From positions 9,349-73,348 of the forward strand of contig JAKUOU010000020.1 of assembly GCA_022451065.1 (NCBI GenBank): a stretch of DNA of 64,000 bases, written 5' to 3'. The notes beneath the pieces are model-generated. The model was not told where the DNA came from, ran no database searches, and saw only the letters and a program-made list of their open reading frames with translations. Of this stretch, positions 1 to 64,000 are shown piece after piece. How positions within the stretch are numbered: the first letter of the stretch is position 1; the number at the start of each line of letters is the position of its first letter. The position numbers and the translations under genes were made by a program. This DNA comes from Pedosphaera sp. Lineage in GTDB: Bacteria; Verrucomicrobiota; Verrucomicrobiia; Limisphaerales; UBA1096.

Positions 1-155
1 CGGCCATGTGGACAAAGTCACGCTGCGCGGTTTGTGGGATCAAACTTGGTACAAAGGCTACATCCTAACTCGTGAACCCAAATTGCCCCGGCGATAATTC
101 ACACCGTGTTCCGGCTTGCACTTCCCCGCAATTCTGTTTCGGTTCCTCACGCCGG

Positions 156-1679
156 ATGAAACCGACAGTCATCATTCTTGGAATTGCTTTTGCAAGTGCG
201 CTTAGCCAGGCGCATTCTGATAGTTGGAGCCAATTCCGTGGCCCGAACGGCTCCGGAGTGGCGAAGGACAGCAGGCCGCCAATCGAACTCGGCGCAGCCC
301 AACTGGCTTGGAAGGCAACACTGCCACCCGGCCTGTCATCGCCGGCGCTATCGGATAAGCGCGTTTTTCTCACCGGCTTGGCCAAGGGCAGGCTCGTCAC
401 CATCGCAATCAACAAAGCCAACGGCAAAATCATCTGGCAAAACCAGGCACCAAAGGTAGAACTCGAAAAGGTTCACAAAGCCAGCCACCCCGCCGCACCA
501 TCAATGCTCGTCGATGATGATCGGGTGTTTACTTACTTCGGCTCATACGGACTGCTCTGCTACAACCTCGACGGTAGGGAACTTTGGAAAAAACCGATCC
601 CCACACCAAAGACACTTTACGGCATGTCCACCTCCCCGATCGTCCACGGCGAACATCTCATCATGGTTTTGGATAACGACACGAATCTCCCCGGCAGCCG
701 GTTGAGCCAGTCTAAAATCGTCGCCTACAACAAAACCAACGGCGATGTCGCCTGGGAAATTCCCCGCCCATTTCACCGCAGCGGTTGGTCCACTCCGATG
801 ATTTGGAAACATGACCGCAGCACCGAACTCGTCGTCCTAGGCAACGGCCGCGTGAGCGGTTACGACATGAAAACCGGTGTGCAGAAATGGTTTGTCCCGG
901 GCTTCTCCCGTGAAACCATTTCAACACCGGTCGCCGGCAATAACGTTCTTTACGTCTCCTCCTCGAAACTCGGCGGTGGTGCGGACATCCAGCCCGATCC
1001 GTTGCCGTTTTGGGAGGCCGTCATTCGTTTCGACAAAAATAGTGATGGCAAAATTGAACGCAAGGAAATGACCGGCCACTTCACTTTTCCAATCCGACCC
1101 GAACTTCCGCTCGGCCATCCCGGCTACGGCATCCCGTTACCGGACGACAAGCGCCGCCGTCAGGAACGGCTCGACGGGATGTTCCGCGGCACCGACCGCA
1201 ACCGAGACGGCTTTTGGAGCAGGGAGGAATTCATGTCGAATATGCGCGGCGGCCGCGGCAAGCCGTTGCTCATCGCCATACGCCCTGGAGGTCAGGGCGA
1301 CGTCACCGACACGCATCTAAAGTGGGAACTTAATCGGAGCATCCCTGAAATCCCCTCTCCGTTACTCTACAGTAATCTCATCTATATGGTTCGAAACGGC
1401 GGCCTTCTCGCAGCAGTTGATGCCACCAACGGAAAGCTGATCTACCGCGAACGCCTCAACGCGCCCGGCCAATACAGCGCCTCCCCTGTCGCCGCAAACG
1501 ATCACATTTACCTCAGCTCAAACCGGGGCGTCATCACCATTGTCAAAGTGGACAAAGAATTTAAAATCACCCATCAACACGATCTTAAAGACCCGGTGTT
1601 TGTCACACCTGCCATTGACAAAAACACCCTGTATGTTCGCACCGAAAAAGCCCTCTGGGCATTTCGAAGGAACGACTAA
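156..1679 (+). CDS. secreted PQQ-like (BamB-type) beta-propeller repeat protein with an internal EF-hand pair
   Basis: ORF 72..1679. A signal peptide (MKPTVIILGIAFASALSQA) begins at the ATG at 156. Repeated propeller-blade motifs are present (GKIIWQ, GDVAWE, GVQKWF, GKLIYR). Two Ca-binding-type loops are present (DKNSDGKIERKEM, DRNRDGFWSREEF). Confidence 0.6.
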   Translation: MKPTVIILGIAFASALSQAHSDSWSQFRGPNGSGVAKDSRPPIELGAAQLAWKATLPPGLSSPALSDKRVFLTGLAKGRLVTIAINKANGKIIWQNQAPKVELEKVHKASHPAAPSMLVDDDRVFTYFGSYGLLCYNLDGRELWKKPIPTPKTLYGMSTSPIVHGEHLIMVLDNDTNLPGSRLSQSKIVAYNKTNGDVAWEIPRPFHRSGWSTPMIWKHDRSTELVVLGNGRVSGYDMKTGVQKWFVPGFSRETISTPVAGNNVLYVSSSKLGGGADIQPDPLPFWEAVIRFDKNSDGKIERKEMTGHFTFPIRPELPLGHPGYGIPLPDDKRRRQERLDGMFRGTDRNRDGFWSREEFMSNMRGGRGKPLLIAIRPGGQGDVTDTHLKWELNRSIPEIPSPLLYSNLIYMVRNGGLLAAVDATNGKLIYRERLNAPGQYSASPVAANDHIYLSSNRGVITIVKVDKEFKITHQHDLKDPVFVTPAIDKNTLYVRTEKALWAFRRND

Positions 1680-1688
1680 ACCATTCGG

Positions 1689-3089
1689 TTATTTCGCGAT
1701 CCGCGGGACGAGCTGGTCGGGCACCGACTTGACACTGGCTTGAAGTTTTTCGCCCAGCTTGGCCAAGCGCTCAACAATCTCCGGGTGCTCGGCCGCCAAG
1801 TCGTATTTCTCTGAGGGATCTTCACCCAAGTGATACAGTTCCGGCTTGGCTAAAGGCTTGGGGTTGATGCCATTTTCCCCACGAAACTGCACCTTGTAGT
1901 TGCCGGAACGTACCGCGCTCAACTGCGCGCCGCCGAAGTAAAACATCCCCTTGCGCGGACTCTTCCCTCGCTTGAGAAGCACATCGCTCAAGTCGTAGCC
2001 GTCGATCGCTCGGTCGTCCGGCGACTTGACTCCAGCCAGACTGGCAAACGTCGGCAGCACATCAAGCGTGCTGCCCATCTCCTGCACCACGCCCGGTTTC
2101 ACGTTGCCCGGACCCCAGAAAATTGCCGGCTCACGCATGCCGCCCTCTCGAGTGCCGCCCTTGGCTCCACGCAGCAGACCGGCCGACCCGCCGTGCGTCT
2201 TGAATACCTCCCACGGACCGTTGTCCGACGTGAACAGCACGATCGTTTTCTTGTGCAGCTTTTGTTTGCGCAACGTGTTGAGCACCTGCCCTACCGACCA
2301 GTCAATCTCCTCGATCACATCGCCATAAATCCCATTCAGGCTTTTGCCTTCAAACTTCTTGGATCGGTACAGCGGGATGTGCGGCATCGAGTGCGCGAGG
2401 TATAAAAAGAATGGTTTCTCTCTGTTATCCTTTATGAATTTGACCGCCTGCTGGGTGTAACGGCGGGTGATGGTGGTTTGATTCACCGGCCGCTCGATCT
2501 CCTCGGCATTTCTAAGCAAAGGCACCTTGTAAATCGACCACGGTGATGACTTGCCAATTTCCACCCAGTTGCCCTTGATCGATGGATCACGATCCATATC
2601 GTTGGAGTAAGGGATGCCGTAGTACGAGTCGAAGCCCTGTGTGATCGGCAGGTGCCTGGGCAAATGCCCCATGTGCCACTTGCCGACCATGCCGGTTTTG
2701 TAACCGGCATCTTTCAGCACCTCGGCAACCGTGATCTCGCTTTGAGGCAGGCCACCGGCGGAATCGGGAAACAGCACCACCCGCTTACTCGATGCCATGC
2801 CAGAACGCACCGGCAACCGACCGGTCATCAAGGCTGCGCGGCTGGACGTGCAGACCGGCGCCGAGGAATAGAATTGAGTCCACTTCTGCCCCTGATGCGC
2901 CATGCGATCAAGGTTCGGCGTGTGAATGGTCGGATGACCGTTGCACGACATATCGCCGTAGCCCTGGTCATCGGTGAAAATCACAACGAAGTTCAGTTGC
3001 TCCTTGGCCAATCCCGACGAACCCAAACCAAGCGCCACGCCCAAACCAAGCGCACCCAGTTTCAAACCGTTCAAAAAAAGGGAGTTCAT
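1689..3089 (-). CDS. arylsulfatase (arylsulfatase A-like) with non-canonical CTSSR maturation motif
   Basis: ORF 1689..3164. The likely start is MNSLFLNGLKLGALGLG (signal peptide). Sulfatase metal site VVIFTDDQGYGD. The formylglycine box reads PVCTSSRAALMTGR. GKWHMGH motif present. Confidence 0.8.
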   Translation of the reverse strand: MNSLFLNGLKLGALGLGVALGLGSSGLAKEQLNFVVIFTDDQGYGDMSCNGHPTIHTPNLDRMAHQGQKWTQFYSSAPVCTSSRAALMTGRLPVRSGMASSKRVVLFPDSAGGLPQSEITVAEVLKDAGYKTGMVGKWHMGHLPRHLPITQGFDSYYGIPYSNDMDRDPSIKGNWVEIGKSSPWSIYKVPLLRNAEEIERPVNQTTITRRYTQQAVKFIKDNREKPFFLYLAHSMPHIPLYRSKKFEGKSLNGIYGDVIEEIDWSVGQVLNTLRKQKLHKKTIVLFTSDNGPWEVFKTHGGSAGLLRGAKGGTREGGMREPAIFWGPGNVKPGVVQEMGSTLDVLPTFASLAGVKSPDDRAIDGYDLSDVLLKRGKSPRKGMFYFGGAQLSAVRSGNYKVQFRGENGINPKPLAKPELYHLGEDPSEKYDLAAEHPEIVERLAKLGEKLQASVKSVPDQLVPRIAK

Positions 3090-3209
3090 GCGGAGCAACC
3101 TACCAAACGCCCTGTACCGTTGGAAGAAAAAGAAACCAGACGCTCTCATAGTCGACAGCTTCAAAAACTATCCTCGCTGAACTCAAGGTTTTGTTTCGGC
3201 GCGTCGCGC

Positions 3210-4874: not shown

Positions 4875-4880
4875 TGTCTT

Positions 4881-6197
4881 TCAATGCTTGGCCAAGGTCT
4901 TGAGGTAGCGCTTGGCTTCTTTGGGATTCAGTTTCACCGGTTCAGTGAGCGTGGCTTCGCGGGGGCCGAAGGGGCATTTGGCCGGGGGAACGTCAAAAAA
5001 ATCGTTCTGTTTTTTGAGGGCGAACTGGGCGCCGGTCATGATGGCATTTTCGCCGAACCGCCGCTCAAGCACTTGCAGGGCGTGGTCGATTGCGCCCCAG
5101 CGCTCGGCGTCCGTGCTGCCCCACAGGGTCGGCTGAGTGTCGAGTCGCTGCAGATCGGAGAAGCCGAGACAGAGTTGCCGGATCGCCTTGTGAGCGCCGC
5201 GCATGGCGTCCCAGTAAAGTTGCTCCACGACCTCGTTGATGACAGAGTTGCGAAACTGCGGATGCTGGAACCGATGCCGACTGCCGGTCCGCTCAAAATC
5301 ACTGAACCGAATACTGACGAACAGTTCCCGCGCCTGCAGGCCTTCGCGGCGTAACTGGCCGGTTAACCGGGCGGCTTCGCTCAGCAAAAAAATCAGCCCG
5401 GCATCGTAGTCCGGCTCATCAACCGGCAACGTGGTACTGCTGGAGATAGTGGTGCGGTCCTTGACCTCGACCTCGACCGGCTCGGTCCATTTGCCACGGG
5501 CAAACAGCCACAACTGTTGCCCCCAGATGCCGAAGCGTTTGCGCAGCAGTATCGACGGCATACGGGCCACGTCACCGAACGTGTGCGCGCCGAGCGCAGC
5601 CAGCGCGCGTTCACGCCGCCTGCCGCAGCCGGCGAGTTCGCTCAGCGGCCGGTCGGCCAAAAACTCCCGCTCGCGTCCCGGCGATATTTCGCAGAACCCC
5701 GGCTTGGCGGCGCTGGTCGCCAACTTGGCAGCCCACATCGAGCCGCCCAAGCCGGCCGACACCGGTATCCCGACCGTTCGCTCGATCTCCTCGCGCAGCC
5801 GGTTGACGTACTCCGACGACGACGGTTTACGCCAGACGTAGCGCTCCATCGCGGTAAGATCTAAAAAACCCTCGTCGATCGACGCCGGCAGCAGCGTCGG
5901 GGTGTAGCGCTCCATCACGCGAAACATGTTGCGGGAGATACGCCGGTAATCGTCGTAGTGCGGCCTGGCCAATACACCGTGCGGACAGAGGCGCCTAGCC
6001 TCGAAACAGGCGGTGCCGGTCCTGATGCCAAAGCGCTTAGCCAAACGGTTGGCGGCAATCACGATGCCATCGCCCTTACGGCCGCCTCCAACCCACACCG
6101 GCCGGCCCGATAGCGACGCGTCCATGGCAATCTCGCAACTGGCGAAAAACGTGTCGCCATCGACGTGCAGGATGCGGAGTTGTTGAACCTCGGACAC
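4881..6197 (-). CDS. dinB: Y-family DNA polymerase IV
   Basis: ILHVDGDTFFASCE (catalytic DxD/FFASVE box), IVIAANRLAKRFGIRTG, and SIDEGFLDLT motifs. The ORF track extends to 6473, but that extension overlaps the divergent gene. I place the start at the GTG at 6195-6197, and this is uncertain. Confidence 0.7.
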   Translation of the reverse strand: MSEVQQLRILHVDGDTFFASCEIAMDASLSGRPVWVGGGRKGDGIVIAANRLAKRFGIRTGTACFEARRLCPHGVLARPHYDDYRRISRNMFRVMERYTPTLLPASIDEGFLDLTAMERYVWRKPSSSEYVNRLREEIERTVGIPVSAGLGGSMWAAKLATSAAKPGFCEISPGREREFLADRPLSELAGCGRRRERALAALGAHTFGDVARMPSILLRKRFGIWGQQLWLFARGKWTEPVEVEVKDRTTISSSTTLPVDEPDYDAGLIFLLSEAARLTGQLRREGLQARELFVSIRFSDFERTGSRHRFQHPQFRNSVINEVVEQLYWDAMRGAHKAIRQLCLGFSDLQRLDTQPTLWGSTDAERWGAIDHALQVLERRFGENAIMTGAQFALKKQNDFFDVPPAKCPFGPREATLTEPVKLNPKEAKRYLKTLAKH

Positions 6198-6327
6198 AGT
6201 GGTCTCGAGTGTCGCAACCAAACCGAGTCCGGTCAATTCGCCAGCCCCGAGCGAGACAAATTGGCGCAAAAACAGGGTTGCCTTTTGTTGAATATCGGGG
6301 CGGAATGGGCCGCTACTTTTCTTAGCT

Positions 6328-8766
6328 GTGTTTTTAAGGACCACATGGAAAATCAGCGCCTTGGGCGCGGCGCTCGCCACGGCGGGCGCGCTTGGCCAAG
6401 CGGGTGCCGCCGTAGCGGACGCCGCGGGCATTGCGTTTTTCGAGAAAAACATCCGCCCGGTGCTGGCGAACAACTGCTACCAGTGTCACTCGGCCGAAGC
6501 CCGCAATCTCAAGGGAGAGCTGTTTCTAGACTCGAAGCAGGGCATGCTCAATGGTGGCGAATCCGGCCCGGTGATCGTCCCTGGCAAACCGGCCGAGAGC
6601 CGGCTGCTGCAGGCGATCCGCCAAGTTGGCAAACTGAAAATGCCGCCCCGCGACAAGCTGTCCGGGCAGGTCGCAGCCAACTTTGCCAAGTGGATCAGGA
6701 TGGGCGCGCCTGACCCGCGAGCGGTCAACGGCGGCAATCCGGTCAAAAGTAAAATCGACCTCGAGGCCGGCCGCAAGTTTTGGTCGTTCATCCCGCCAGT
6801 CAAGCCGAACACCCCGCCGGTCAAGGACAGCGCCTGGCCAAGGGGCGAGATCGACCACTTCGTCCTGTCCAAGTTGGAGGAAAACAAGTTGTCTCCGGTG
6901 CGCGATGCCACTCGCCGCGAGCTCATCCGACGAACTTACTTTGACTTGATCGGGCTGCCTCCCTCGCCAGAACAAGTTGCTGGATTTTTGAGTGACACGT
7001 CAGCGAACGCCTTTGAGAAAGTTGTCGATGAGTTGCTGCGGTCGCCCCACTTCGGCGAACACTGGGGACGGCACTGGCTCGACGTCGCACGCTATAGCGA
7101 GTCCAACGGCATGGAACGCAACTTCACCTACCCCCATGCGTGGCGCTACCGCGACTACGTGATCAACTCGTTCAACAACGACAAGTCGTTTCGACGGTTC
7201 GTACGGGAACAGGTTGCCGGTGATCTGCTTGGTCGCGACAAACGAAAACCCACCGACGAAGAACTCATTGCGACCGGTTTCCTCGCGCTTGGCCCCAAAC
7301 CTCTCAACCAAGGCAACAAGGTACTTTTCAAACTCGACGTCATCGACGAGCAGATCGATGCGACGACACGGACATTCCTTGGCCTGACCGTCTCGTGCGC
7401 CCGCTGTCACGACCACAAGTTTGACCCCATCCCAACCAGGGACTATTACGCGATGGCCGGCATCTTTCGCAGCACCGATGCGCTCTACGGCACGATCAAT
7501 GGCAGGGGTAACCGCCAGCCGTCCGACCTGCACGCCATCGCCAGCAACGCCGCCAATCGGGCAGAAAAAGTTCGCGATCACAACGACAAGCTGCGCAAGG
7601 CCAAGCGCCGCCTCTCGGGCATGCAAAACCAGATAAAGGATTTGCGGATGCTGAAAAAGAAGGCCACCGAGGACGACAAAGCCCGCATGCGGAACCTTAG
7701 TCGTTCACTGAAGGATCTCCGCTTGAACATTAAAGACCTTGAAGAAAAAACGCCGGATGCCGATTACGCGATGGGCGTGCGCGACGGCAAAATTGGCGAC
7801 ACGCGCCTGTTGCATCGTGGCGAGATTCGAAACCAAGGCCAATCGGTGAAACGCGGCTTCCTTCAGGTGCTGGATCACGTGAAGGCCTACCCGATCGGCA
7901 GCCGATCCAGCGGCCGCCTGCAACTTGCTAGTTGGTTAACTCAACCGGACAACCCACTCACATCTCGCGTGATGGTCAACCGCATTTGGCATCACCTCTT
8001 CGGAGTGGGCATCGTGCACACGATGAACAACTTCGGCGCGACCGGCGAACACCCCACCCACCCCGAGCTGCTCGACTACTTGGCGGTGCGTTTTGTCGAA
8101 GACAACTGGTCGATGAAATCGATGATCCGCGAGATGGTGCTCAGCCGCACCTACCAACTTTCCAGCGACACGACCGAAGCCAATGCCGAAGCCGACCCGA
8201 ACAACCAATTGCTCTGGCGAATGAACCACAAGCGTCTCGGCGCGGAAGCGCTGCGTGATGCCATGTTGGCCACCAGCGGCCGACTCAACCGTCAACCGGC
8301 TGACGGGTCGGTAATCACGAAACTTGGCGACGTCAACGTTGGACGTGCTCAACGCCAATTAAATCAATTGAAACGCAATACTGGTCAGCGAAGCGTTTAC
8401 CTGCCAATCCTGCGAAATGCCTTGCCGGAGATGATGCGAATTTTCGATGTCGCCGAACCCAGTTTGATCGTTGGTAAACGAAACAAAACCACCGTGCCAA
8501 CCCAGGCGCTTTACCTAATGAACAACCAGTTTGTGATTGGGCAGTCGTTCAACATGGCCAAGCGCGTGATGAACTCGACGGAAACCAGGCGCGACGGCAT
8601 CCGACTGGCCTACGAACTGGCGTTTGCGCGTGAGGCCACCGACAACGAGATGTCGAAGGCTCGTGAGTTTCTGGACGCTGTTTCCGAGGAAAAAGATCGC
8701 CCTGGCCAATGGACAGTGCTTTGCCAGGCGCTACTGGCCAGCGCGGAGTTCCGCTATATTGACTAA
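6328..8766 (+). CDS. PSCyt1 (planctomycete cytochrome c) / DUF1549 / DUF1553 domain protein
   Basis: GTG start followed by a signal peptide. Heme-type motifs are CYQCHS and KMPP. DUF1549 core is HWGRHWLDVARYSESNG. Also has the conserved [12 protein letters not shown] box, a coiled-coil linker, and a DUF1553 C-terminus (NRIWHHLFG..G). Confidence 0.8.
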   Translation: MFLRTTWKISALGAALATAGALGQAGAAVADAAGIAFFEKNIRPVLANNCYQCHSAEARNLKGELFLDSKQGMLNGGESGPVIVPGKPAESRLLQAIRQVGKLKMPPRDKLSGQVAANFAKWIRMGAPDPRAVNGGNPVKSKIDLEAGRKFWSFIPPVKPNTPPVKDSAWPRGEIDHFVLSKLEENKLSPVRDATRRELIRRTYFDLIGLPPSPEQVAGFLSDTSANAFEKVVDELLRSPHFGEHWGRHWLDVARYSESNGMERNFTYPHAWRYRDYVINSFNNDKSFRRFVREQVAGDLLGRDKRKPTDEELIATGFLALGPKPLNQGNKVLFKLDVIDEQIDATTRTFLGLTVSCARCHDHKFDPIPTRDYYAMAGIFRSTDALYGTINGRGNRQPSDLHAIASNAANRAEKVRDHNDKLRKAKRRLSGMQNQIKDLRMLKKKATEDDKARMRNLSRSLKDLRLNIKDLEEKTPDADYAMGVRDGKIGDTRLLHRGEIRNQGQSVKRGFLQVLDHVKAYPIGSRSSGRLQLASWLTQPDNPLTSRVMVNRIWHHLFGVGIVHTMNNFGATGEHPTHPELLDYLAVRFVEDNWSMKSMIREMVLSRTYQLSSDTTEANAEADPNNQLLWRMNHKRLGAEALRDAMLATSGRLNRQPADGSVITKLGDVNVGRAQRQLNQLKRNTGQRSVYLPILRNALPEMMRIFDVAEPSLIVGKRNKTTVPTQALYLMNNQFVIGQSFNMAKRVMNSTETRRDGIRLAYELAFAREATDNEMSKAREFLDAVSEEKDRPGQWTVLCQALLASAEFRYID
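6389..6402. repeat. perfect 14-mer palindrome CGCTTGGCCAAGCG (inside a signal-peptide coding region)
   Basis: Read directly from the sequence. It is translated as ALGQA. Confidence 0.95.
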
Positions 8767-8822: not shown

Positions 8823-10220
8823 ATGAACAACTGGAACAACAGTTTCTGCAGCAACCGCCAATATCTGCTGTCCCGCCGTGACATACTAAAGGGTATCTCG
8901 GCCGGCTTCGGCTACATGGCGTTTGCCGGAATGAGCACCGCCCAGGCCGCGGCCAACGCCCCCCTTTCACCCAAGCGGCCGCACTTCCAGCCCAAGGCCA
9001 AGCGCGTGATTTTTTGCTGCATGCGCGGCGGCCCATCGCACGTCGATACGTTTGACCACAAACCGTCCCTCGTCCGAGATGAAGGCAAGCAGTTGCCTAA
9101 GTTCCGCAACCGCGAACTGATGCCATCGCCATGGGAGTTCAATTCGCACGGCCAGGGCGGCCTGATGATTTCCGAACTGTTCCCGAACTTGGCCAAGCAC
9201 GCCGACGACCTCTGTCTGCTTAACGGCATGCACGCCTCCGTACCGGCTCATCCGCAAAGCTTTTTGCAATTGCATACCGGCAGCTTTCAGTTTGTTCGCC
9301 CGTCGATGGGTTCGTGGGTGTTGTACGGTTTGGGTTCTGAAAACCAAAACCTGCCCGGCTTTATTTCGCTCTGTCCGCCGGACAACGTCGGCGGCGCGCA
9401 AAATTACGGCAGCGCTTTTCTGCCGGCGTTTTATCAGGGAACCAAGATTGGCGAGTTCAACCAAAACATCCGTACCGCTTCGCTGCGCAACCTCGACAAC
9501 AAAAACATTTCGTCCAAGCTGCAGCGCAAGCAACTCAACTTTGTTCAGTCGCTGAACCGCGACCTGCTCGACCGCAAAAAACAAAGCTCGCAGGTCGAGG
9601 GTGTCATCGAGTCGTACGAACTGGCTTTCCGCATGCAGTCGACCGTGCCGGAATTGATGGACATCGGCGATGAAAGCCAGGCTACGCTCGAGAGTTACGG
9701 CATCGGCAACCGCGCCACCGAGAATTTCGGCCGCCAATGCCTGATGGCACGCCGCTTCGCCGAGGCCGGCGTCCGGTTCATCGAAGTGGCACACGGCAAC
9801 TGGGATCAGCACAAGAACCTCGAATCCAATCTGTCACGAAACTGCCGAGCGACCGATCAGCCATTGGCAACTCTCCTGAAGGATCTAAAGGAGCGCGGTT
9901 TGCTCGAGGAGACGTTGGTTGTTTGGGGTGGCGAGTTCGGCCGCACGCCGCACATCAAGCAAGCGAACGGGCGCGACCACAACGCCACCGGATTCACCTT
10001 CTGGATGGCCGGCGGCGGCGTGAAGGGCGGCATGACCTACGGCGCGACCGACGAACACGGTGTTGCCGCGGTGGAAAACCGCATGCACTTTCACGATCTG
10101 CACGCAACGATCCTCCACCTGCTGGGACTCGACCACGAGGCGTTGACCTACAAATACGCTGGTCGTGACTTCCGACTGACCGACGTCCACGGCAACGTCG
10201 CCCACGACATCATCGCCTGA
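8823..10220 (+). CDS. DUF1501 domain protein (Tat-exported, sulfatase/alkaline-phosphatase-like fold)
   Basis: Twin-arginine signal SRRDILKG. GGPSHVDTFDHKP metal/nucleophile box. C-terminal GRDHN..GF and [16 protein letters not shown] motifs are shared with the two paralogues at 52693 and 59266. Confidence 0.8.
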   Translation: MNNWNNSFCSNRQYLLSRRDILKGISAGFGYMAFAGMSTAQAAANAPLSPKRPHFQPKAKRVIFCCMRGGPSHVDTFDHKPSLVRDEGKQLPKFRNRELMPSPWEFNSHGQGGLMISELFPNLAKHADDLCLLNGMHASVPAHPQSFLQLHTGSFQFVRPSMGSWVLYGLGSENQNLPGFISLCPPDNVGGAQNYGSAFLPAFYQGTKIGEFNQNIRTASLRNLDNKNISSKLQRKQLNFVQSLNRDLLDRKKQSSQVEGVIESYELAFRMQSTVPELMDIGDESQATLESYGIGNRATENFGRQCLMARRFAEAGVRFIEVAHGNWDQHKNLESNLSRNCRATDQPLATLLKDLKERGLLEETLVVWGGEFGRTPHIKQANGRDHNATGFTFWMAGGGVKGGMTYGATDEHGVAAVENRMHFHDLHATILHLLGLDHEALTYKYAGRDFRLTDVHGNVAHDIIA

Positions 10221-10242
10221 CCGCCAGGCACCAGCGCCGGGA

Positions 10243-11409
10243 TTGCCCAAGCGACCGACTCACGTTAGAACGCCCGTGGTGAGCCAAGTTGTTCAACTCC
10301 TGCGCGACCTAATCGCGTTGCCCAGCGTCAATGCCGCCTTTCTGCCGCCGGGCGATGCTCGCGCTGGGGAGACCAAAGTCACCGACTATCTGGTCAAGCG
10401 CGCCGCCATGGCCAGACTCGACATCGAGCGCCAGCCGGTCACGCCAGAGAGCGATAATTTGATTGTCCGCCTCCAGCCGCTTGGCCAAGCGCGTCACCGC
10501 ATCGTCCTCGCACCGCACCTCGACACCGTTGGCGGCGACGACCCGAAAATGTTTCGCCCTACAAAAAAGGGCAATAAATTGCACGGCCGGGGCGCGTGCG
10601 ACACCAAGGGTAGCGTCGCCGCGATGTTCCGCGCGCTCGAAAACGTGGCCAACCGCAAAAAGCGCCCCAGTGAAACCGAGATCGTTTTCGTCGGCCTGAT
10701 GGACGAGGAATGCAACCAAACCGGCTCACGCGCCTTTGCTAAGCTGCGGATGAAGGCCGACCTCGCTCTTGTCGGTGAACCGACCCGCTGCAAAGTCGTC
10801 ACCGCGCACAAGGGCGACCTCTGGCTGCGACTCACCGCCACCGGCAAGGCCGCCCACGGCGCTCGCCCCGAGTTGGGCCGCAACGCGGTCCACGCGTTGG
10901 CCCAGTGCATCGATGCCATCGAGACAGACTATGCCGCGTTGCTCCGCAAACGCCGCCATCCGGTGCTTGGCCACGCGACGATCAACACCGGCACCATCCG
11001 CGGCGGCGCGCAGCCGAACATCGTTCCCGACCACTGCGAAGCCGACCTTGATCGCCGCACCCTCCCCGGCGAAACGTTCGCCAAGATCCGCCGCGAACTC
11101 CTCGGCGTACTGGCCAGGCGCGGCCTCAAGGCCAAACTGATCGACGTCAAGGGCTACACCTGTCCCGCTCTCGAGACCAACCCCGGACTGCCATGGGTGC
11201 GCGACTTCATGCGGTCTGCCCGGCAGAAAAAACCGCTCGGCGTCGATTACTACTGTGACGCCGCCAACCTCGCCGGCGCGGGCATTCCCACTGTCGTCTG
11301 GGGGCCGGGCGACATCGCACAGGCGCACACGTCCGACGAGTGGATCACCATCGAGCAACTCGAGCGCGGCACCGACATGCTAACGCGATTCCTTTTGTCG
11401 CTGCCATGA
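10243..11409 (+). CDS. M20 family metallopeptidase (ArgE/DapE-like deacylase)
   Basis: HLDTV, GRGACDTKG and MDEE motifs of the M20 family. The listed start is TTG. In-frame GTG codons at 10276/10279 are alternative starts. Confidence 0.7.
   Translation: MPKRPTHVRTPVVSQVVQLLRDLIALPSVNAAFLPPGDARAGETKVTDYLVKRAAMARLDIERQPVTPESDNLIVRLQPLGQARHRIVLAPHLDTVGGDDPKMFRPTKKGNKLHGRGACDTKGSVAAMFRALENVANRKKRPSETEIVFVGLMDEECNQTGSRAFAKLRMKADLALVGEPTRCKVVTAHKGDLWLRLTATGKAAHGARPELGRNAVHALAQCIDAIETDYAALLRKRRHPVLGHATINTGTIRGGAQPNIVPDHCEADLDRRTLPGETFAKIRRELLGVLARRGLKAKLIDVKGYTCPALETNPGLPWVRDFMRSARQKKPLGVDYYCDAANLAGAGIPTVVWGPGDIAQAHTSDEWITIEQLERGTDMLTRFLLSLP
10478..10491. repeat. perfect 14-mer palindrome CGCTTGGCCAAGCG (inside the M20 peptidase gene)
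   Basis: Read directly from the sequence. It is translated as PLGQA. Confidence 0.95.
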
Positions 11410-11431: not shown

Positions 11432-12604
11432 ATGAGATTGGCCCTGCTCACGCATGAACCGTTTTATCCGCCCTCCGGCGGCGGCTCGGCAGAGGCCAAC
11501 TACCTCGTCAGCGAACTCATCCGGCGCGGCCACGAGGTGCACCTGTTCTGTCCGTACTTCCCCGCTAGGGATGCCGTTGCCGATCGTTTCGGAATCACCG
11601 TCCACCCCTTCACAAGCTGGGAAATGAGCCGCCACACCCGGTTGCGCTCGATCAAGTACCTCGCCTATCCCGGTACACTCCGAAGACTCGTTCGCCGTAT
11701 CGCGCGTGACATCCCGTTCGACGCCATCCTGTCTCAGCATGCCATCTCCGCCGTGGCCGCCGGCCGACTAAAGGCCGATCTGGGTGTGCCGGTAGTGATG
11801 AACTTTCTCGATTTCCTCACCGGCTTCATGGAATCGTGGTCGCCTTGGACAATGCCACGCTTTGCGCTGCGCCGCTTGAAGGCGTACGAGCTTTCGCTGC
11901 CCAAGCGCCACGATGCCGACGCCGTGCTCACCGTCTCCGACGAACTCGCCCAACGATTCGCCGAAACCGGCTATGCCGCCGACCGGCTCCACCCCATTCA
12001 CTACGGCTACGACGCAAAACTTTTCCAACTGGGAACCGGGAACCGGGAACCGAGAACCGTCGCCATGCACGGCTCGTTCGACACACATCACCTCGGGCCG
12101 ATCGCCATCCGCGCCATCACCGACATCGCGTTGGACAGGCCTGAGACACATTTTCTTTTCATCGGCCGTGAAACTAACGCCGTCAAAAAACTGGCCAAGC
12201 GCGTCCTCACTGCCGCGCCATCGGCCAAGCTCGAGTGCACCGGCTTTGTGCCTTACGGCGAAGTCGCCAAGCGACTTGGCCAAGCGGGCGTCGGTATCAT
12301 CCCGTACGAGTCTTCGAGCGGCACACACTGCGCCTTCGTTGCCAAGCTCGTCGAGTATGCCGCGCTTGGCCTACCGGTGGTGAGTACGCCACTGGCTGGA
12401 GTGAAGGCGTTTTTCAGCGACGAGCCGTCGGTGCGTTTTTCGGCGTTCGACGGCGAGCAGTTTGCCCGGGACGTTATCGATGTACTCGATAACCCGCCGC
12501 CACAGGCCGAGTCGGAGCGCTTGGCCAATCGCGTCGCCGCTGAACTCGATTGGCCGGTAATCTGCGCTCGAGCCGTCGACCAACTGGAAGCCGTTGTCTC
12601 ATGA
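11432..12604 (+). CDS. glycosyltransferase family 4
   Basis: N-terminal MRLALLTHEPFYPPSGGGS..GHEVHLF (GT-B/GT4 signature). C-terminal E-x7-E-like region (FVAKLVEYAALGLPVV). Confidence 0.7.
   Translation: MRLALLTHEPFYPPSGGGSAEANYLVSELIRRGHEVHLFCPYFPARDAVADRFGITVHPFTSWEMSRHTRLRSIKYLAYPGTLRRLVRRIARDIPFDAILSQHAISAVAAGRLKADLGVPVVMNFLDFLTGFMESWSPWTMPRFALRRLKAYELSLPKRHDADAVLTVSDELAQRFAETGYAADRLHPIHYGYDAKLFQLGTGNREPRTVAMHGSFDTHHLGPIAIRAITDIALDRPETHFLFIGRETNAVKKLAKRVLTAAPSAKLECTGFVPYGEVAKRLGQAGVGIIPYESSSGTHCAFVAKLVEYAALGLPVVSTPLAGVKAFFSDEPSVRFSAFDGEQFARDVIDVLDNPPPQAESERLANRVAAELDWPVICARAVDQLEAVVS
12031..12058 (+). repeat. heptanucleotide tandem repeat (GGGAACC)x3 + GAGAACC inside the GT4 gene
   Basis: Read directly from the sequence: GGGAACCGGGAACCGGGAACCGAGAACC. 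It encodes GTGNREPRT. Confidence 0.9.
12265..12286. repeat. phased copies (CGCCAAGCG a CTTGGCCAAGCG) inside the GT4 gene
   Basis: Read directly from the sequence. It shares the 20-mer CAAGCGACTTGGCCAAGCGG with hisA (28436-28455). Confidence 0.9.
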
Positions 12605-13887
12605 GTAAAGCCGACTCCAAACACGTATTTTATCGGCAGGGAAGCTGGATGGTGATCGCCACCTTCGTCAGCGGCCTGCTGATGTTTGCAGTGCATATTT
12701 TCGGCGGCTGGATGAGCCCCGAGGAGTACGGCCTATTCGTCACGTTATTGCAAATTCTCAACCTCATGATGATTCCCGCGCTTGGCCTGCAAACGGTATT
12801 CGCGCAACAAACCGCTGCCGCTACCGAGCCACAACAGAGACACGACTTGGCCAAGTCCACCCAAAAAATGCTCCTCATTTGCCTGTACGTTTGGATCGCG
12901 ATTTCGTCTCTTATTCTTCTGAATCGAGAGGCCATTCTTGAGTTGCTGAAGATCGAAAAACCAACGGCACTTTACGTGACTTTACTGCTGGGCCTGCCAC
13001 AGCTTTGGCTGCCGATGATGCTCGGCATCCTGCAGGGCAGACAAAACTTCACGTGGCTTGGCAGCGCAGCGATCGTTAACGGTGTGGGGCGTTTTGCCGC
13101 GGTCGGAATCATCGTCATGCTGCTCGGTGGCCAAGCTGCGGGAGCGACTACCGGTGTGCTGATAGGACTCACTACTACTTGCCTACTAGCTGGTTGGCAC
13201 GGTCGGCAAACTTGGCTTGGCCAATCAGGGGCCAGCCGAGGCAACTTCGATGCCAAGGCTTGGCTAGCCCGAATAGTACCTCTCACACTGGGCATGGGCG
13301 CAGGACTATTCATGTTGAGCGCAGACATGATCGCGGCGCGGGCCATCCTGCCTGAGGTGGACTCCGGCCCTTACGGCGCAGCCGGTATGATCGGGCGCGG
13401 ACTGGTTGCATTTACCGCGCCACTGGCTGCGGTGATGTTTCCAAAGCTCGTGCGCGAAGCTGCTAGGGCAAAGTCGGGTGTGCTTGGCCAGGCGTTCCTC
13501 GGCACGGCCATCCTCGGCGTGTTGGCCGGGATCGGATGCACACTCGCCGCCTGGCTGCTGCCGGACATCGCCGACCGTTTCTCCATCTTGGCCGCAAAGA
13601 AAAAAATTATCACAGAGATCGCGTCGCTAATCCCGTACTTTATCTGGAGCATGTTGCCGCTGGCGTTGGGGAATGTTTTCGTGGCGGCACTCTTGGCTCA
13701 AGAACGCTACCGCGCCGTGCCCTGGCTGGTCGGGATCGCCGTCGCCTATGGGCTGACACTGGCTTGGCTTGCGAACACCGCCGAGCCGCCGTCGCAGCAG
13801 ACGATTATTCTCACCCTGGGTGGGTTTAACCTCGCGTTTCTCTGCACAGCAGCGACCTTGGCCAGGCGCTACGCCTCGTCGCCGTAG
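12601..13887 (+). CDS. polysaccharide/oligosaccharide flippase-like membrane protein (MOP superfamily)
   Basis: The ATG at 12601 overlaps the GT4 stop as ATGA. The protein is about 428 aa and almost entirely hydrophobic multi-span helices, as in Wzx/MurJ-like transporters. Confidence 0.5.
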   Translation: MSKADSKHVFYRQGSWMVIATFVSGLLMFAVHIFGGWMSPEEYGLFVTLLQILNLMMIPALGLQTVFAQQTAAATEPQQRHDLAKSTQKMLLICLYVWIAISSLILLNREAILELLKIEKPTALYVTLLLGLPQLWLPMMLGILQGRQNFTWLGSAAIVNGVGRFAAVGIIVMLLGGQAAGATTGVLIGLTTTCLLAGWHGRQTWLGQSGASRGNFDAKAWLARIVPLTLGMGAGLFMLSADMIAARAILPEVDSGPYGAAGMIGRGLVAFTAPLAAVMFPKLVREAARAKSGVLGQAFLGTAILGVLAGIGCTLAAWLLPDIADRFSILAAKKKIITEIASLIPYFIWSMLPLALGNVFVAALLAQERYRAVPWLVGIAVAYGLTLAWLANTAEPPSQQTIILTLGGFNLAFLCTAATLARRYASSP

Positions 13888-13979: not shown

Positions 13980-13993
13980 CGCTTGGCCAAGCG
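13980..13993. repeat. perfect 14-mer palindrome CGCTTGGCCAAGCG (intergenic, 9 nt before the GTG at 14003)
   Basis: Read directly from the sequence. Confidence 0.95.
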
Positions 13994-18324: not shown

Positions 18325-18338
18325 CGCTTGGCCAAGCG
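18325..18338. repeat. perfect 14-mer palindrome CGCTTGGCCAAGCG (recQ/bioB divergent spacer)
   Basis: Read directly from the sequence. It lies 27 nt before the bioB ATG. Confidence 0.95.
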
Positions 18339-46113: not shown

Positions 46114-46127
46114 CGCTTGGCCAAGCG
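46114..46127. repeat. perfect 14-mer palindrome CGCTTGGCCAAGCG (nusG-rplK spacer)
   Basis: Read directly from the sequence. It lies 8 nt after the nusG stop and 32 nt before the rplK ATG. Confidence 0.95.
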
Positions 46128-52670: not shown

Positions 52671-52686
52671 CCAAGCGCTTGGCCAG
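52671..52686. repeat. permuted palindrome CCAAGCGCTTGG+CCAG between convergent genes
   Basis: Read directly from the sequence. It uses the same word centred on GCGC instead of GGCC. Confidence 0.9.
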
Positions 52687-59089: not shown

Positions 59090-59265
59090 GGCACGGGCTC
59101 GACCGATTAAATGCAGCCTACGCCGATTTGTCAGCTAAACATTTGCCGGACAGCTTTGTAAATTTTTGCAAAAAATCTGCACGAGACCTCACTTTTTCTC
59201 GGTGAGCACGTTGCCGGATTACTTGTCGTTGAGTTCCTGACATGGGGCGAGGCTGTTGTGTACAT

Positions 59266-60699: not shown

Positions 60700-60702
60700 A
60701 CT

Positions 60703-63042
60703 TCAGTTCCTGGTAATGGCTTCGTCGGTGCCGAGCACGGCGTTGGCCAGCGACGCGTAGGCGGCCAACTCCACCACGTCGAGCACCGGGTCGTGCGGCG
60801 ACTCGCCAACCGCCATAAGCCGCCGTGCTGCCTCCGGCTCGGCGCGAAAACTCGTTTGAAACTCCGCCAGCGCGCCGCTCAACAAATCCAGCTCGCGCTC
60901 CGTCGGGCGTCGACCGCAAACCAAGCGATGCAGCAGCGTCAACCGCGACTCCTCCGTCGCGCCGCCATCACGCAACACCCGCCCGGCCAGCTTGCGCGAC
61001 GCCTCGACAAACGTTGGGTCGTTCATCAGCACCAACGCGGCGAGCGGCGTGTTCGTCTTTGCACGCGTCAGAACGCACACCTCACGTGACGGCGCGTCGA
61101 ATGCCTGCATGTTCGGTGGTGGTACGGAGCGCTTCCAGTAAGTATACATGCTGCGGCGATAAAGTTTCCCACCGTGATCCTGCACAAAACGCGGCACGTT
61201 CTCATAAACCACATCATCCCATAGCCCCGGCGGTTGGTACGGCCGGACGCTCTCGCCGCCGAGCCGGCCGACGAGCAACCCGCTCGACGCCAGCGCGTGG
61301 TCGCGGATCATTTCCGCCGGTAACCGAAACCTCGGTCCGCGCGCGAACAACCGGTTCGCCGGATCGACCTCGAGCAGCCCCGGCGACACGCGCGACACCT
61401 GCTGATACGTCGACGACATCACGATGAGCTTGTGCATCGCCTTCCGGTTCCAGCCACCACGGATGAACTCGGTCGCCAGCCAGTCGAGCAGCGCCGGGTG
61501 CGTTGGCCACTCGCCCTGCGCGCCGAAGTCCTCCGACGATTTCACGATGCCGGTGCCGAAGTGCATCTGCCAAAAACGGTTCACGACCACCCGCGCCGTC
61601 AACGGGTTCTCCCCGCCGACAATCCACTTGGCCAAGCCGAGTCGGTTGCGCGGCGCACCGGCGGGCCATTGACCAAGCGCGGCCGGCAGCCCGGCGCTGA
61701 CCTCGACGCCGCTTGGCTGATCGTACTGCCCACGACTCAGTACGAACGTCTTCCGGGCCGGGCTCAACTCGCCCATGATCATCGCCGTCGGCAGCGCTTG
61801 TCCAAGCGCTGCCAATGCCTTCCGCGCTGTCTTTAGCTGCTCCTCCGCCTCCGATTTTTTTTCCAGCTCGGCAATCTTGGCGCGGTGCCACTCCATTTGT
61901 TTCCGCTGTGCCACACTGGGCACCTTAACGAATGGCTTGTCCGCTAGCTTATCCGCGTTGCCGACGTGCGCCGTCTCCGGCACGTTGTTGAACAACGCGT
62001 AAAACTCGTAAAACTCCCTCTGCGAAATCGGGTCGTATTTGTGGTCGTGACACCGCGCGCAGCCAAACGTCAGCCCGAGGAAAACCGCGGTCGTCGTCTC
62101 GACGCGATCCACCACGGTCTCGACACGATACTCCTCATTGATGACGCCTCCCTCGCTCTGGATCGAATGGTTGCGATTGAAGCCGGTCGCTACGCGCTGG
62201 GCGATCGTCGCGTCCGGCAACAGGTCGCCGGCGAGTTGCTCGAGGGCAAACCGGTCGAACGGCATATTGTCGTTGAACGCGCGAATCACCCAGTCGCGCC
62301 ATGGCCACATCACGCGGCGGCGGTCCAGGCTGTATCCGTGCGAGTCGGCGTATCGCGCCGCATCGAGCCAGTCGAGCGCCATCCGCTCGCCGTATCGCGG
62401 CGATGCCAGCAATCGGTCGACAACCTTCTCGAACGCGCGCGGCGAGGCGTCGGCAAGAAATGCGTCGATCTCCCGCGGAATTGGCGGCAGACCTGTGAGA
62501 TCGAAGCTCACGCGGCGAAGCAGCGTCTCCTTGTCTGCACGCGGCGAGGGTTGCAACCCGGCACGCTTCATCTTGGCCAGGACGAACCGATCAATCGCGC
62601 CGCTTGGCCAGGCGGAGTTTGTCGCCGGGAGAATCGCCGGTCGGCTGGGCGGAATAAATGCCCAATGCTTTTCCCACTTGCCCCCCTGCTCAATCCAAGT
62701 ACGGAGAATTTTAATGTCGCCAAGGGCCAGAACTCGACCTGAATCCACTGGCGGCATCCGCTCCTCCAGATCAGTGTGAGTTATGCGCTTGAATAACTCG
62801 CTTTTGTCAGGCTTGCCGGCGTTGATGATCGCTTGGCCAGGAGCACCGGTGTCGAGCCGCAGGTCGGCTTTGCGCTTGGCTGCATCCGGCCCATGACACT
62901 CGAAACAGTTGTCGGAAAGAATCGGGCGGACATCGCGATTAAACAGGACAACCTCCCAGGCAACTATCGAACCGGCTGGGAGCCACCCGGCAAGCAGAAG
63001 CACGGCGGCACGCAACAGTGAGTTGTTCCAAAAGAAAATCAA
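60703..63042 (-). CDS. PSCyt1 / DUF1549 / DUF1553 domain protein
   Basis: CFECHG plus ERMPP cytochrome-like module, [31 protein letters not shown], and NRFWQMHFG. The start codon is TTG and is uncertain. Confidence 0.8.
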   Translation of the reverse strand: MIFFWNNSLLRAAVLLLAGWLPAGSIVAWEVVLFNRDVRPILSDNCFECHGPDAAKRKADLRLDTGAPGQAIINAGKPDKSELFKRITHTDLEERMPPVDSGRVLALGDIKILRTWIEQGGKWEKHWAFIPPSRPAILPATNSAWPSGAIDRFVLAKMKRAGLQPSPRADKETLLRRVSFDLTGLPPIPREIDAFLADASPRAFEKVVDRLLASPRYGERMALDWLDAARYADSHGYSLDRRRVMWPWRDWVIRAFNDNMPFDRFALEQLAGDLLPDATIAQRVATGFNRNHSIQSEGGVINEEYRVETVVDRVETTTAVFLGLTFGCARCHDHKYDPISQREFYEFYALFNNVPETAHVGNADKLADKPFVKVPSVAQRKQMEWHRAKIAELEKKSEAEEQLKTARKALAALGQALPTAMIMGELSPARKTFVLSRGQYDQPSGVEVSAGLPAALGQWPAGAPRNRLGLAKWIVGGENPLTARVVVNRFWQMHFGTGIVKSSEDFGAQGEWPTHPALLDWLATEFIRGGWNRKAMHKLIVMSSTYQQVSRVSPGLLEVDPANRLFARGPRFRLPAEMIRDHALASSGLLVGRLGGESVRPYQPPGLWDDVVYENVPRFVQDHGGKLYRRSMYTYWKRSVPPPNMQAFDAPSREVCVLTRAKTNTPLAALVLMNDPTFVEASRKLAGRVLRDGGATEESRLTLLHRLVCGRRPTERELDLLSGALAEFQTSFRAEPEAARRLMAVGESPHDPVLDVVELAAYASLANAVLGTDEAITRN

Positions 63043-63166
63043 GTGCCCGAGAAGATTAAGCCAGAGCGGCCGGCTTGGCCAAGCGGAACATTATTTAATG
63101 AGTGCCTCGATTTTGGCCAGGGTTGAGGGCTTCAGATCGAGTCGGCACAGGGCGCCCTGGCTTGCT

Positions 63167-64000
63167 TTACTTGGGGATCGATTCACGCAGACGTTCGATC
63201 ATTGATAAGTGACGGGGTAACCTTGCAAGGTTTTTCCATTCTTGGGGATCGGAGTCGTGATCGTAGAGTTCTTCACCTCCATCATGGTATCGGATGTAAC
63301 GCCAACGTCCGGTCCTCACGGCGTGGTTGCCCTGGCCGTAGGTGATTAGCACGGGACGTTTCCACTCCATTTTGGGATTCTGCAACAGCGGCACGATGCT
63401 CTGTCCGTCCAATCCTTTACGCGAGGGCAAACCGCACAATTCAACCAGTGTTGGATAGAGGTCTATCAAACTGACGGGACGCCAGCAAAGTTGGTTTTTT
63501 TGAAGCTGTCCGGGTACAGAAATAATCAACGTTGTCCGAGTTGTAGTCTCCCAAAGCGCATGTTTGCGCCAGTGCTGCTTTTCACCCAGGTGCCAACCGT
63601 GATCGCCCCAGAGAACGACGATGGTGTTGTCAGCATGTTCACTGTGCTCTAGTGCCATTAAAAGCCGACCCACATGGGCATCTACGAAGCTAATCGTCGC
63701 CAGATAACTTTGTACAGCTCGATGCCACTGTTTATATTTCAAAACCATGTCGTGGTCTTCGCCGTGCCTGGCAAAGTTTCGCGGCCCGGACACGTCGTGC
63801 ACCTCCCGCGCCAGCTTTTTTCCAAATGCTGGCAAGTCGTCGCGGTCGCTGTCCTGCGTCTTTGGAATGAGGATCTTTTCCAGAGGGTGCAAGTCGAAGT
63901 ATTTTCGGGGAACGTGCCAAGGTAAATGCGGCTTGGTAAATCCGCAGGCTAGGAAGAAGGGTTTGTCGTGGGTTTTCTCGAGTTCAGAGATCGCCCAGCT
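63167..64000 (-). CDS. sulfatase (iduronate-2-sulfatase-like), 5' end beyond the window
   Basis: The frame stays open to position 64000 (..[29 protein letters not shown]..). [13 protein letters not shown] and the C-terminal sulfatase region are present. The N-terminal catalytic part is not in the window. Confidence 0.75.

Follow-up and report, generated by a model that had tools for sequence, protein, structure and literature searches.

A palindromic word spread through a verrucomicrobial clade is very probably a new member of the HIP class of highly iterated palindromes

The window analysed here, a 64-kb stretch of a Pedosphaera sp. assembly (GCA_022451065.1, contig JAKUOU010000020.1; GC content 57.4%), carries 50 called genes, is 94% coding, and contains one palindromic word, the octamer TTGGCCAA, in 40 exact copies (625 per Mb) distributed over genes and spacers. 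Longer forms of the word were found as 22 copies of the 10-mer CTTGGCCAAG, 9 copies of GCTTGGCCAAGC, and 5 copies of the 14-mer CGCTTGGCCAAGCG. Variants were also present, namely CTGGCCAAGCG at positions 12191, 19754, 21865, 22409, and 23653, GGCCAAGCG at 7599, 8556, 8996, and 39885, and CGCTTGGCCAG at 52676, 62601, and 62830. The abundance of the word had been pointed out in an original prediction made from the letters of the window. All 22 starts of the 10-mer and all 5 starts of the 14-mer given there were exact, as were 16 of the 17 further octamer cores; the remaining core was placed at 45991 instead of 45992, and a copy at 51038 had been overlooked.

Comparison with null models revealed a large excess of the word. 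In 100 dinucleotide-preserving shuffles, the octamer was expected 1.64 times (largest count, 6) and the 10-mer 0.13 times (largest count, 2), against 40 and 22 copies observed, giving an observed/expected ratio (O/E) of about 24 for the octamer. The zero-order O/E was about 45 for TTGGCCAA and about 290 for CTTGGCCAAG, and under an order-3 Markov model the corresponding values were 8.6 and 50; the signal was absorbed solely by Markov models of order 6–7, which already include the word. The word and its overlapping sub-words headed all lists of over-represented 6-, 8-, and 10-mers, and the top hexamer was the half-word GCCAAG/CTTGGC, with 206 occurrences compared with 74 expected.

To place the carrier of the word, we searched with ribosomal protein L1. 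The best matches, with 84–95% identity, were marine metagenome-assembled genomes (MAGs) labelled Verrucomicrobia/Verrucomicrobiales, including ERR599062_bin.58, NIOZ-UU28, ARS81, SP274, UBA673, and UBA6775; the next matches, at 67% identity or less, were MAGs of Limisphaerales, Pedosphaerales, and subdivision 3. Judged by these matches, the carrier is a clade of uncultured marine Verrucomicrobiota and not a planctomycete, so that the assignment to a Planctomycetes–Verrucomicrobia–Chlamydiae-type lineage in the original prediction was right at the level of the superphylum. Contigs from TARA and other ocean metagenomes with 97–99.6% identity to the window encode an EF-Tu identical to that of the window. 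These independent assemblies, from other samples, carry the same copies of the word, and the sequence is therefore not an assembly artefact.

The tuf-secE-nusG-rplKAJL-rpoBC neighbourhood served as a cross-genome control. In close relatives (at least 86% L1 identity; loci L009–L020 and L062), TTGGCCAA occurred at 0.16–0.94 copies per kb in every locus and, in nearly all, outnumbered every other palindromic octamer. The low-GC sisters L021 (XB_MAG217) and L022 (CPC23), with GC contents of 0.42–0.44 and 84–85% L1 identity, contained one TTGGCCAA each, and SP274 (L014; GC content 0.49) was intermediate, with 0.24 copies per kb. In about 65 loci of similar GC content from distant Verrucomicrobiota, we found 35 copies in 879 kb (0.040 per kb), as composition predicts. 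The word has been lost in the low-GC sister lineages. A seeming scarcity of the word in L013 did not hold up, as loci consisting only of rpoB/rpoC all showed few perfect copies. A scan of metagenome contigs for the 14-mer yielded at least 120 stretches; among the matches listed, 30 had several 14-mers and 47 (335 kb) were rich in the motif beyond the seed. These 47 motif-rich contigs had GC contents of 0.53–0.64 and 680–950 TTGGCCAA per Mb. Their tetranucleotide profiles fit the clade, but the correlation (r = 0.91) was too close to that with other Verrucomicrobiota (r = 0.87), so the placement of these contigs is just consistent with the clade. Since the word is found in independent contigs and in all close relatives, its enrichment is genome-wide and clade-wide. 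Confinement of the enrichment to this window, which the original prediction had considered, was thus not what we observed.

Analysis at the codon level revealed that the word is not produced by the coding of proteins. When synonymous codons were shuffled within each gene with protein and codon usage fixed (500 runs), 13.7 ± 2.5 copies of TTGGCCAA (maximum 26) and 6.4 ± 1.2 copies of CTTGGCCAAG were obtained, compared with 40 and 22 observed; because about 7 and about 5 of these null copies, respectively, are spacer copies left unshuffled, the excess within genes is about 5-fold for the octamer and about 12-fold for the 10-mer. Permutation of whole codons gave 9.5 and 5.3 copies, respectively. 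The count of the central tetramer GGCC was 550, compared with about 590 under the codon null. The claim of hyper-abundance beyond chance and codon usage is borne out by the nulls based on dinucleotides, Markov models, synonymous codons, and codon permutation, and also by distant relatives, whose versions of the same genes are without the word.

The word was read in several frames: 17 copies of TTGGCCAA in the window were in frame 0 (L-A-K/N), 15 in frame 1 (L-G-Q), and 2 in frame 2 (W-P), with 6 in spacers; the corresponding numbers in the pooled contigs were 141, 108, 13, and 56. Leu-Ala-Lys/Asn tripeptides were spelled with TTGGCCAA in 17 of 36 cases, compared with 3.5 predicted from codon usage, and Leu-Gly-Gln tripeptides with CTTGGCCAA in 13 of 29 cases, compared with 0.75 predicted. 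The tripeptides themselves were also in excess of amino-acid composition in the window's proteins (LGQ, 29 vs. 5.4 expected, about 5-fold; LAK, 23 vs. 10; LAN, 13 vs. 6), whereas six control tripeptides matched expectation. As the word is over-used to spell LA[KN] and LGQ and is present in spacers as well, the peptide enrichment is a consequence and not the cause. The frame tally and the excess of LGQ and LAK agree with the multiple frames and recurrent peptides noted at the outset, and the peptides ALGQA, PLGQA, LLGQA, VLGQALGQL, RLAKL, NLAKR, LLAKQ, and AHWPS lie in the genes to which they had been assigned. The word is a DNA-level signal that bends codon choice and even amino-acid sequence.

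Alignment of the flanks revealed that the unit is a dyad-symmetric site of 14–16 bp, (G)CGCTTGGCCAAGCG(C). Around the TGGCCA core the flanks read (S)CGCT-TGGCCA-AGCG(S), with information decaying outward from 62–68% at ±1 to 47–49% at ±3 to 4. The extensions past the octamer keep the palindrome, and one extended consensus, GCGCTTGGCCAAGCGC, was common to all motif-rich subclades, without dialects; no similarity was seen beyond about 16 bp around the sites. The two halves co-occurred: CTT to the left and AAG to the right of GGCC were found together 188 times, compared with 59 expected from independent halves, and the co-occurrence of CGCTT and AAGCG was about 6-fold over independence in the pooled, partly seeded set and about 7-fold in the unseeded window. 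Half of the CCAAGCG anchors in the window showed 0–3 mismatches in the opposite half, compared with a background of 9%, and the remaining anchors resemble solo or decayed halves. TGGCCA without both motif flanks occurred at about 0.34 per kb, near the baseline of 0.25 per kb in distant relatives, and GGCC, at 9.3 per kb in the clade and 8.1 per kb in distant relatives, was neither enriched nor depleted. The specificity therefore extends over 10 bp or more, further than that of a 4–6-bp site. The expectation that GGCC and TGGCCA, as restriction targets, should be depleted consequently carries little weight. The excess of one-mismatch forms over baseline decreased from the outermost position of the octamer to the innermost (central GGCC), with +87, +38, +18, and +10.

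In the pooled contigs, the density of the word without seeded 14-mers was 0.68 per kb in genes and 0.69 per kb in spacers. A 3–4-fold spacer enrichment of the octamer seen in the window was not upheld in this larger sample, and only the full 14-mer prefers spacers: 27% of 115 14-mers were located in spacers, which make up 10.8% of the sequence (2.5-fold enrichment), as were 3 of the 5 in the window. The 14-mer is rarer in genes presumably because coding constraints truncate the word there. A role as terminator or RNA hairpin was rejected, as the spacer copies showed neither T-runs nor consistent strong folds. A second arrangement of the half-sites, CCAAGCGCTTGG, was found 43 times in 459 kb of clade DNA and was absent from 1.03 Mb of distant relatives; 37 of these 43 occurrences adjoined a primary copy, resulting in a 12-bp register, (TTGGCCAAGCGC)n. 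The sole explanation we can offer for this register is that it may arise from 12-nt in-frame slippage at the hairpin-prone word.

Mapping of orthologous positions by blastn across 18 loci revealed 20 positions with the word in at least one genome, 12 of which were common across the deepest split of the clade. Between L010 and L062, 9 of 10 genic sites were conserved, compared with 22% of frame-matched control octamers (p ~1e-5), in species that differ at about 20% of bases; for other deep pairs, p ranged from 3e-4 to 0.04. The 14-mer at 46114 was intact in nearly every member of the clade, with one-base changes in L009 and L014, and was absent in the low-GC sisters. The sister L022 mostly keeps the same residues, spelled TTAGCCAA, TTCGCTAA, and TTGACCTA, which shows that in conserved genes synonymous choices produce the word. 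The recent gains observed for the window's species were single transitions at outer positions, from CTGGCCAA to TTGGCCAA at 40393 and 45992 and from TTGGCCAG to TTGGCCAA at 48174, and they run counter to the preference of the genome for CTG and CAG.

The word was also found in a phage-like contig, L277 (IMGVR_UViG_3300032087_002358, 1–13670), which encodes a terminase large subunit, a DnaB helicase, a DnaD-like loader, and an exonuclease. It carries 8 TTGGCCAA in 13.7 kb with the typical c/gc flanks, which equals the host density and argues against a restriction target; L277 may be a phage or prophage of the word-carrying clade. The other 119 viral matches to the 14-mer were single, chance-like copies, and all 120 viral matches together (988 kb) averaged a background of 0.047 extra copies per kb. 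The viral scans contained no 20-mer lattice, and their 27 matches to the 16-mer were all single-copy.

The exact copies in the window, with one decayed pair, are collected in Table 1. The longest stretch without an exact octamer (51069–61628; 10.5 kb) is occupied by PSCyt2/PSD1, DUF1501, and abhydrolase genes. Three pairs of PSCyt/PSD1 and DUF1501 genes (6328–10220, 52693–57086, and 59266–63042) and three or four sulfatase genes are present in the window, a gene content usually associated with Planctomycetes. Genes of DNA metabolism lie within 14 kb of one another, encoding a Y-family DinB-like polymerase (4881–6380), an RNase_H_2-type exonuclease (14003–14545), and RecQ (16393–18285); one full 14-mer (13980) directly precedes the exonuclease gene and another (18325) separates recQ from its divergently oriented neighbour, with no link to the word established. 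The S10 operon (rpsJ, rplC, rplD, rplW; 28909–32278) ends after rplW, and an aldose 1-epimerase gene on the same strand occupies the usual place of rplB. Between secE and tuf there are genes for tRNA-Ser(tga) and tRNA-Trp(cca), and upstream of tuf there is one for tRNA-Thr(ggt) (47115–47303 and 48617–48692); no further Rfam match in the window was at or above the gathering score of its family.

Table 1 Copies of the word in the 64-kb window, with gene assignments from Pfam where given.
Form	Position	Location	Peptide	Remark
CTTGGCCAAG	377..386	PQQ_2/EF-hand gene (Pfam), frame 0	GLAKG	
GCTTGGCCAAGC	1757..1768	sulfatase gene (Pfam), frame 0	RLAKL	
TTGGCCAA	3004..3011	sulfatase gene, frame 0	GLAKE	
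CTTGGCCAAG	4887..4896	3' end of Y-family polymerase gene (Pfam)	TLAKH	
CGCTTGGCCAAGCG	6389..6402	PSCyt/PSD1 gene, frame 1	ALGQA	14-mer
CTTGGCCAAG	9188..9197	DUF1501 gene	NLAKH	
CGCTTGGCCAAGCG	10478..10491	peptidase M20 gene	PLGQA	full 14-mer
CTTGGCCAAG	12275..12284	GT4 glycosyltransferase gene	RLGQA	
TTGGCCAA	12521..12528	GT4 gene	RLANR	
GACTTGGCCAAGTC	12844..12857	membrane-protein gene	DLAKS	variant, 14-nt perfect palindrome
TTGGCCAA	13217..13224		WLGQS	
CGCTTGGCCAAGCG	13980..13993	spacer		full 14-mer; 96 nt past one gene, 13 nt before the next
TTGGCCAA	15906..15913	sulfatase gene, frame 2	AHWPS	rare frame
CTTGGCCAAG	16296..16305	sulfatase gene	ALAKP	
CGCTTGGCCAAGCG	18325..18338	spacer between divergent recQ and radical-SAM genes		full 14-mer
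TTGGCCAA	23989..23996	GT2 gene	RLANC	
CTTGGCCAAG	24010..24019	GT2 gene	PLGQV	
TTGGCCAAGCGCTTGGCCAA	27127..27146	queG	VLGQALGQL	two copies in 12-bp register, a 20-nt perfect palindrome including CCAAGCGCTTGG
CTTGGCCAAG	28259..28268	HisA-like gene	KLGQG	
CTTGGCCAAG, then TTGGCCAA	28442..28462	HisA-like gene	RLGQA, AVGQS	second copy 12 bp on
CTTGGCCAAG	28628..28637	HisA-like gene	GLGQG	
TTGGCCAA	31683..31690	rplC	RLANR	
TTGGCCAA	31773..31780	rplC	NLAKR	
GCTTGGCCAAGC	34188..34199	fusA	GLAKL	
TTGGCCAA	34581..34588	rpsG-fusA spacer		
TTGGCCAA	38093..38100	rpoC	CLANP	common to several other clade species
TTGGCCAA	39104..39111	rpoC	KLAKR	common to both sides of the clade's deepest split
TTGGCCAA	40393..40400	rpoB	NIGQV	recent gain; CTGGCC.. 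in all relatives including near-identical strains
TTGGCCAA	43819..43826	rplL-rpoB spacer		polymorphic between near-identical strains
TTGGCCAA	45992..45999	rplK	ALGQQ	gained from CTGGCCAA in the window's species
CGCTTGGCCAAGCG	46114..46127	nusG-rplK spacer		full 14-mer
TTGGCCAA	48174..48181	tuf	LLAKQ	gained from TTGGCCAG
CTTGGCCAAG	49517..49526	DUF3500 gene	VLGQV	kept across the clade
TTGGCCAA	49928..49935	DUF3500 gene, frame 2	LTWPK	
GTTGGCCAAC	51037..51046	GFO/IDH/MocA gene	ELANV	overlooked in the original prediction
GCTTGGCCAAGC	51067..51078	GFO/IDH/MocA gene	LLGQA	
CCAAGCGCTTGG, then CCAG	52671..52682			decayed 12-bp-register pair
CTTGGCCAAG	61627..61636	PSCyt/PSD1 gene	GLAKW	
GCTTGGCCAAGC	63073..63084	spacer		33 nt upstream of the start of the next gene

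The closest known counterparts of the word are the highly iterated palindrome HIP1 and the alternate HIPs of cyanobacteria. Three decades after HIP1 became known, work on its function is only now pointing to methylation-dependent transformation. HIP1 (GCGATCGC) occurs 300–2700 times per Mb with an O/E of 55–228, its one-base deviations are biased to the outer positions, and a repair-based origin has been proposed (Elhai 2015, PMC4390886). HIP1 sites are conserved between genomes beyond controls (Xu, Lawrence & Durand 2018, PMC5861425), and the word has been lost in picocyanobacteria and symbionts (PMC4390886, PMC5861425). It is tied to two orphan methyltransferases and has recently been linked to methylation-dependent natural transformation and the uptake machinery (bioRxiv 10.1101/2024.09.10.611283, 10.64898/2026.06.24.733823). 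The verrucomicrobial word shares with HIP1 a perfect palindromic, GC-rich octamer core with palindromic extensions, the rank of most over-represented octamer (in the window rankings, and as top palindromic octamer in nearly every clade locus), a density inside the HIP1 range, and copies in genes and spacers in several frames. As in HIP1, one-base deviations concentrate at the outer positions, sites are kept between genomes beyond control octamers, albeit more weakly in the window's own lineage, and the word is lineage-specific with losses in particular sublineages, here the low-GC ones. The HIP1-like or uptake-sequence-like behaviour proposed originally is thus found in every testable feature of the HIP class. 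The two words differ in that TTGGCCAA is centred on GGCC and HIP1 on GATC and that they belong to different phyla, which indicates an independent origin. Furthermore, the zero-order O/E of the verrucomicrobial word only reaches or narrowly misses the lower limit of the HIP1 range, cognate methyltransferases are known for HIP1 whereas none was identified here, and we found no description for HIP1 of a secondary half-site arrangement or a 12-bp register.

Other iterated elements resemble the word less closely. The uptake signal sequences (USS) of Pasteurellaceae and the DNA uptake sequences (DUS) of Neisseriaceae, for which competence and uptake bias have been demonstrated, are asymmetric, oriented words; the verrucomicrobial word is similar to them in its density of about one copy per kb, its invasion of core genes and bias of peptide content, its consensus common to a family-level clade, and the preference of complete forms for sites outside genes, but it is a perfect dyad whose halves co-occur 3–7-fold over independence, and the asymmetry typical of USS and DUS is not seen. 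Very short patch (VSP) repair shifts oligomer abundances at Dcm sites in E. coli. This skew likewise concerns a short over-represented word with a cytosine-methylation-type core; however, in the clade T-containing neighbours are not depleted, and the enrichment covers 10–16 bp and exceeds the skew in E. coli by an order of magnitude. Repetitive extragenic palindromes (REP), bacterial interspersed mosaic elements (BIME), and palindromes of the miniature inverted-repeat transposable element (MITE) type are 20–40 bp long, imperfect, and confined to spacers. They too are short palindromes repeated hundreds of times per genome, whereas our word measures 8–16 bp and 34 of its 40 window copies (about 85%) lie inside genes. 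We are therefore confident that the word is a new, independently evolved member of the HIP class and neither HIP1 nor a strict USS/DUS. Full-text literature searches revealed no description of the word, nor of over-represented palindromes or uptake sequences in Verrucomicrobia/Planctomycetes, and the matches to the word itself were just unrelated primers and eukaryotic sites. This is in line with the earlier statement that no equivalent had been described for the lineage, and, within the limits of the searchable literature, no HIP-like word seems to have been reported for Verrucomicrobiota before.

By analogy with HIP1, we lean towards reading the word as a highly iterated palindrome that is specific to its lineage, belongs to the class of HIP1, and is functionally akin to uptake sequences, with the reader and role proposed here. 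Taken as a whole, this reading seems to us only slightly better than even, a judgement that combines our high confidence in the class with a much lower one in the specific function. A dyad of this size and symmetry would most simply have a homodimeric, sequence-specific protein as its reader, with the gene elsewhere in the genome; an orphan DNA methyltransferase, or a partner reading its mark, would be the candidate on the HIP1 model. The abundance of copies would be maintained because a genome-wide process requires a site every 1–2 kb and each copy serves it. The likeliest such process would be the tagging of self DNA for uptake and/or homologous recombination, a function that we assign tentatively and by analogy with HIP1; methyl-directed repair or nucleoid organisation would be alternatives. 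New copies would arise mainly through synonymous C-to-T changes, such as CTG GCC AAG to TTG GCC AAG or CAG to CAA, and would then be retained by selection or recombination-based drive. The stronger version, in which the 14–16-bp dyad is the target of an orphan methyltransferase/reader pair marking self DNA, and hence a second, independent HIP-type system, is possible and rather doubtful.

Several observations weigh against this reading. Pfam searches revealed no methyltransferase, Vsr, or restriction gene in the window, and a signature-motif search detected no C5-, N4-, or N6-methyltransferase and no Vsr in the 335 kb of motif-rich contigs; the candidates that it returned, a sulfatase and SUF/DUF59-like proteins, were false positives. 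Competence genes were represented in the window by only one prepilin-type N_methyl protein in Pfam, and no search was aimed at competence genes. The spacing of copies along the window was slightly clustered and not regular (coefficient of variation 1.18). In the window's own lineage, turnover was higher and conservation exceeded that of controls only modestly, with 5 of 9 sites conserved compared with 0.19–0.35 for controls, and losses were seen even between near-identical strains (43819); such turnover would be possible under a continuing generative bias. The phage-like contig is explained equally well by selection and by a process that acts on whatever DNA is resident. Finally, CCAAGCGCTTGG and the 12-bp register are not predicted by a single dimer-binding geometry and stay unexplained by it.

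Among the rival explanations, the one closest to the favoured HIP-class reading is a strict uptake signal of the USS/DUS type, in which a competence receptor prefers the word and molecular drive spreads copies without benefit per site. The spacing of about one copy per 1–2 kb, the penetration of core genes and distortion of peptides as by USS, the positions that are stable between species yet show gains and losses, the enrichment of the full-length form in spacers, and the loss in low-GC, probably streamlined, sisters would all be expected of such a signal, and HIP1 is now proposed to work likewise. The perfect dyad contrasts, however, with the asymmetric and oriented USS and DUS, and to our knowledge natural transformation has not been reported for this lineage; we consider a strict uptake signal unlikely, although it overlaps the favoured reading and the two are not mutually exclusive. 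A neutral by-product of a GGCC/TGGCCA cytosine methyltransferase and a Vsr-like T:G endonuclease that converts near-matches is less likely still, and we regard it as improbable. Such a process is suggested by the classic 5-methylcytosine targets in the core, the strain-level gains by single outer-position transitions, the precedents of VSP repair in E. coli and of Elhai's repair-based origin of HIP1, and the presence of the word in the phage-like contig. Conversion of near-matches is nevertheless hard to reconcile with their counts, as TTGGTCAA/TTGACCAA and TTGGCTAA/TTAGCCAA stood at 1.27 and 13.9 times the distant-relative baseline, respectively, and no neighbour was depleted. Since unflanked TGGCCA and GGCC remain near baseline, a specificity of 4–6 bp cannot explain selection for 10–16 bp; moreover, the gains are C-to-T at outer positions, opposite to a correction of T:G to C:G, site conservation is far above frame-matched controls in most lineages, and about 400 kb of clade DNA contained neither the GCFWH (Vsr) nor the PCQ (C5-methyltransferase) signature.

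Two further explanations are refuted by our tests. Remnants or ends of mobile elements (MITE or REP-like), or an assembly or duplication artefact confined to the window, might be suspected from the short palindromes typical of REP and MITE ends and from the copies in 12-bp tandem register. Conservation that stops at about 16 bp, copies that mostly sit in frame within conserved genes and recur at orthologous positions in numerous species, the same copies in independent assemblies of the region, and the presence of the word in 47 unrelated motif-rich contigs among the at least 120 matches listed leave this explanation a very small probability. Even less probable is an explanation that derives the word from codon usage, from the amino-acid make-up of the proteins, or from a frequent peptide motif (LAK, LGQ), as the 94% coding window and the general use of TTG, GCC, AAG, GGC, and CAA as codons might suggest. 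The observed count is far above those of both codon nulls, spacer density equals gene density, distant relatives and low-GC sisters encode the same conserved residues by other codons, and LA[KN] and LGQ are spelled by the word well beyond prediction.

Evidence on highly iterated palindromes has so far come from one phylum, and correlation and ancestry are therefore confounded; an unrelated word with the same behaviour in Verrucomicrobiota provides an independent replicate of HIP1. The function of the word is now testable because sister lineages without it exist, which allow profiling of gene presence for methyltransferases, competence genes, and repair genes. In practical terms, binning and the assignment of phages or plasmids to hosts of this clade can draw on the word as a strong compositional marker. 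In its carriers, it visibly shapes the proteins of the host. If it does represent a second HIP-type system, the motif-free low-GC sisters would be natural knock-outs, and comparison of the two systems would show which genes always travel with HIPs and would help to settle the 30-year-old question of what HIPs are for.

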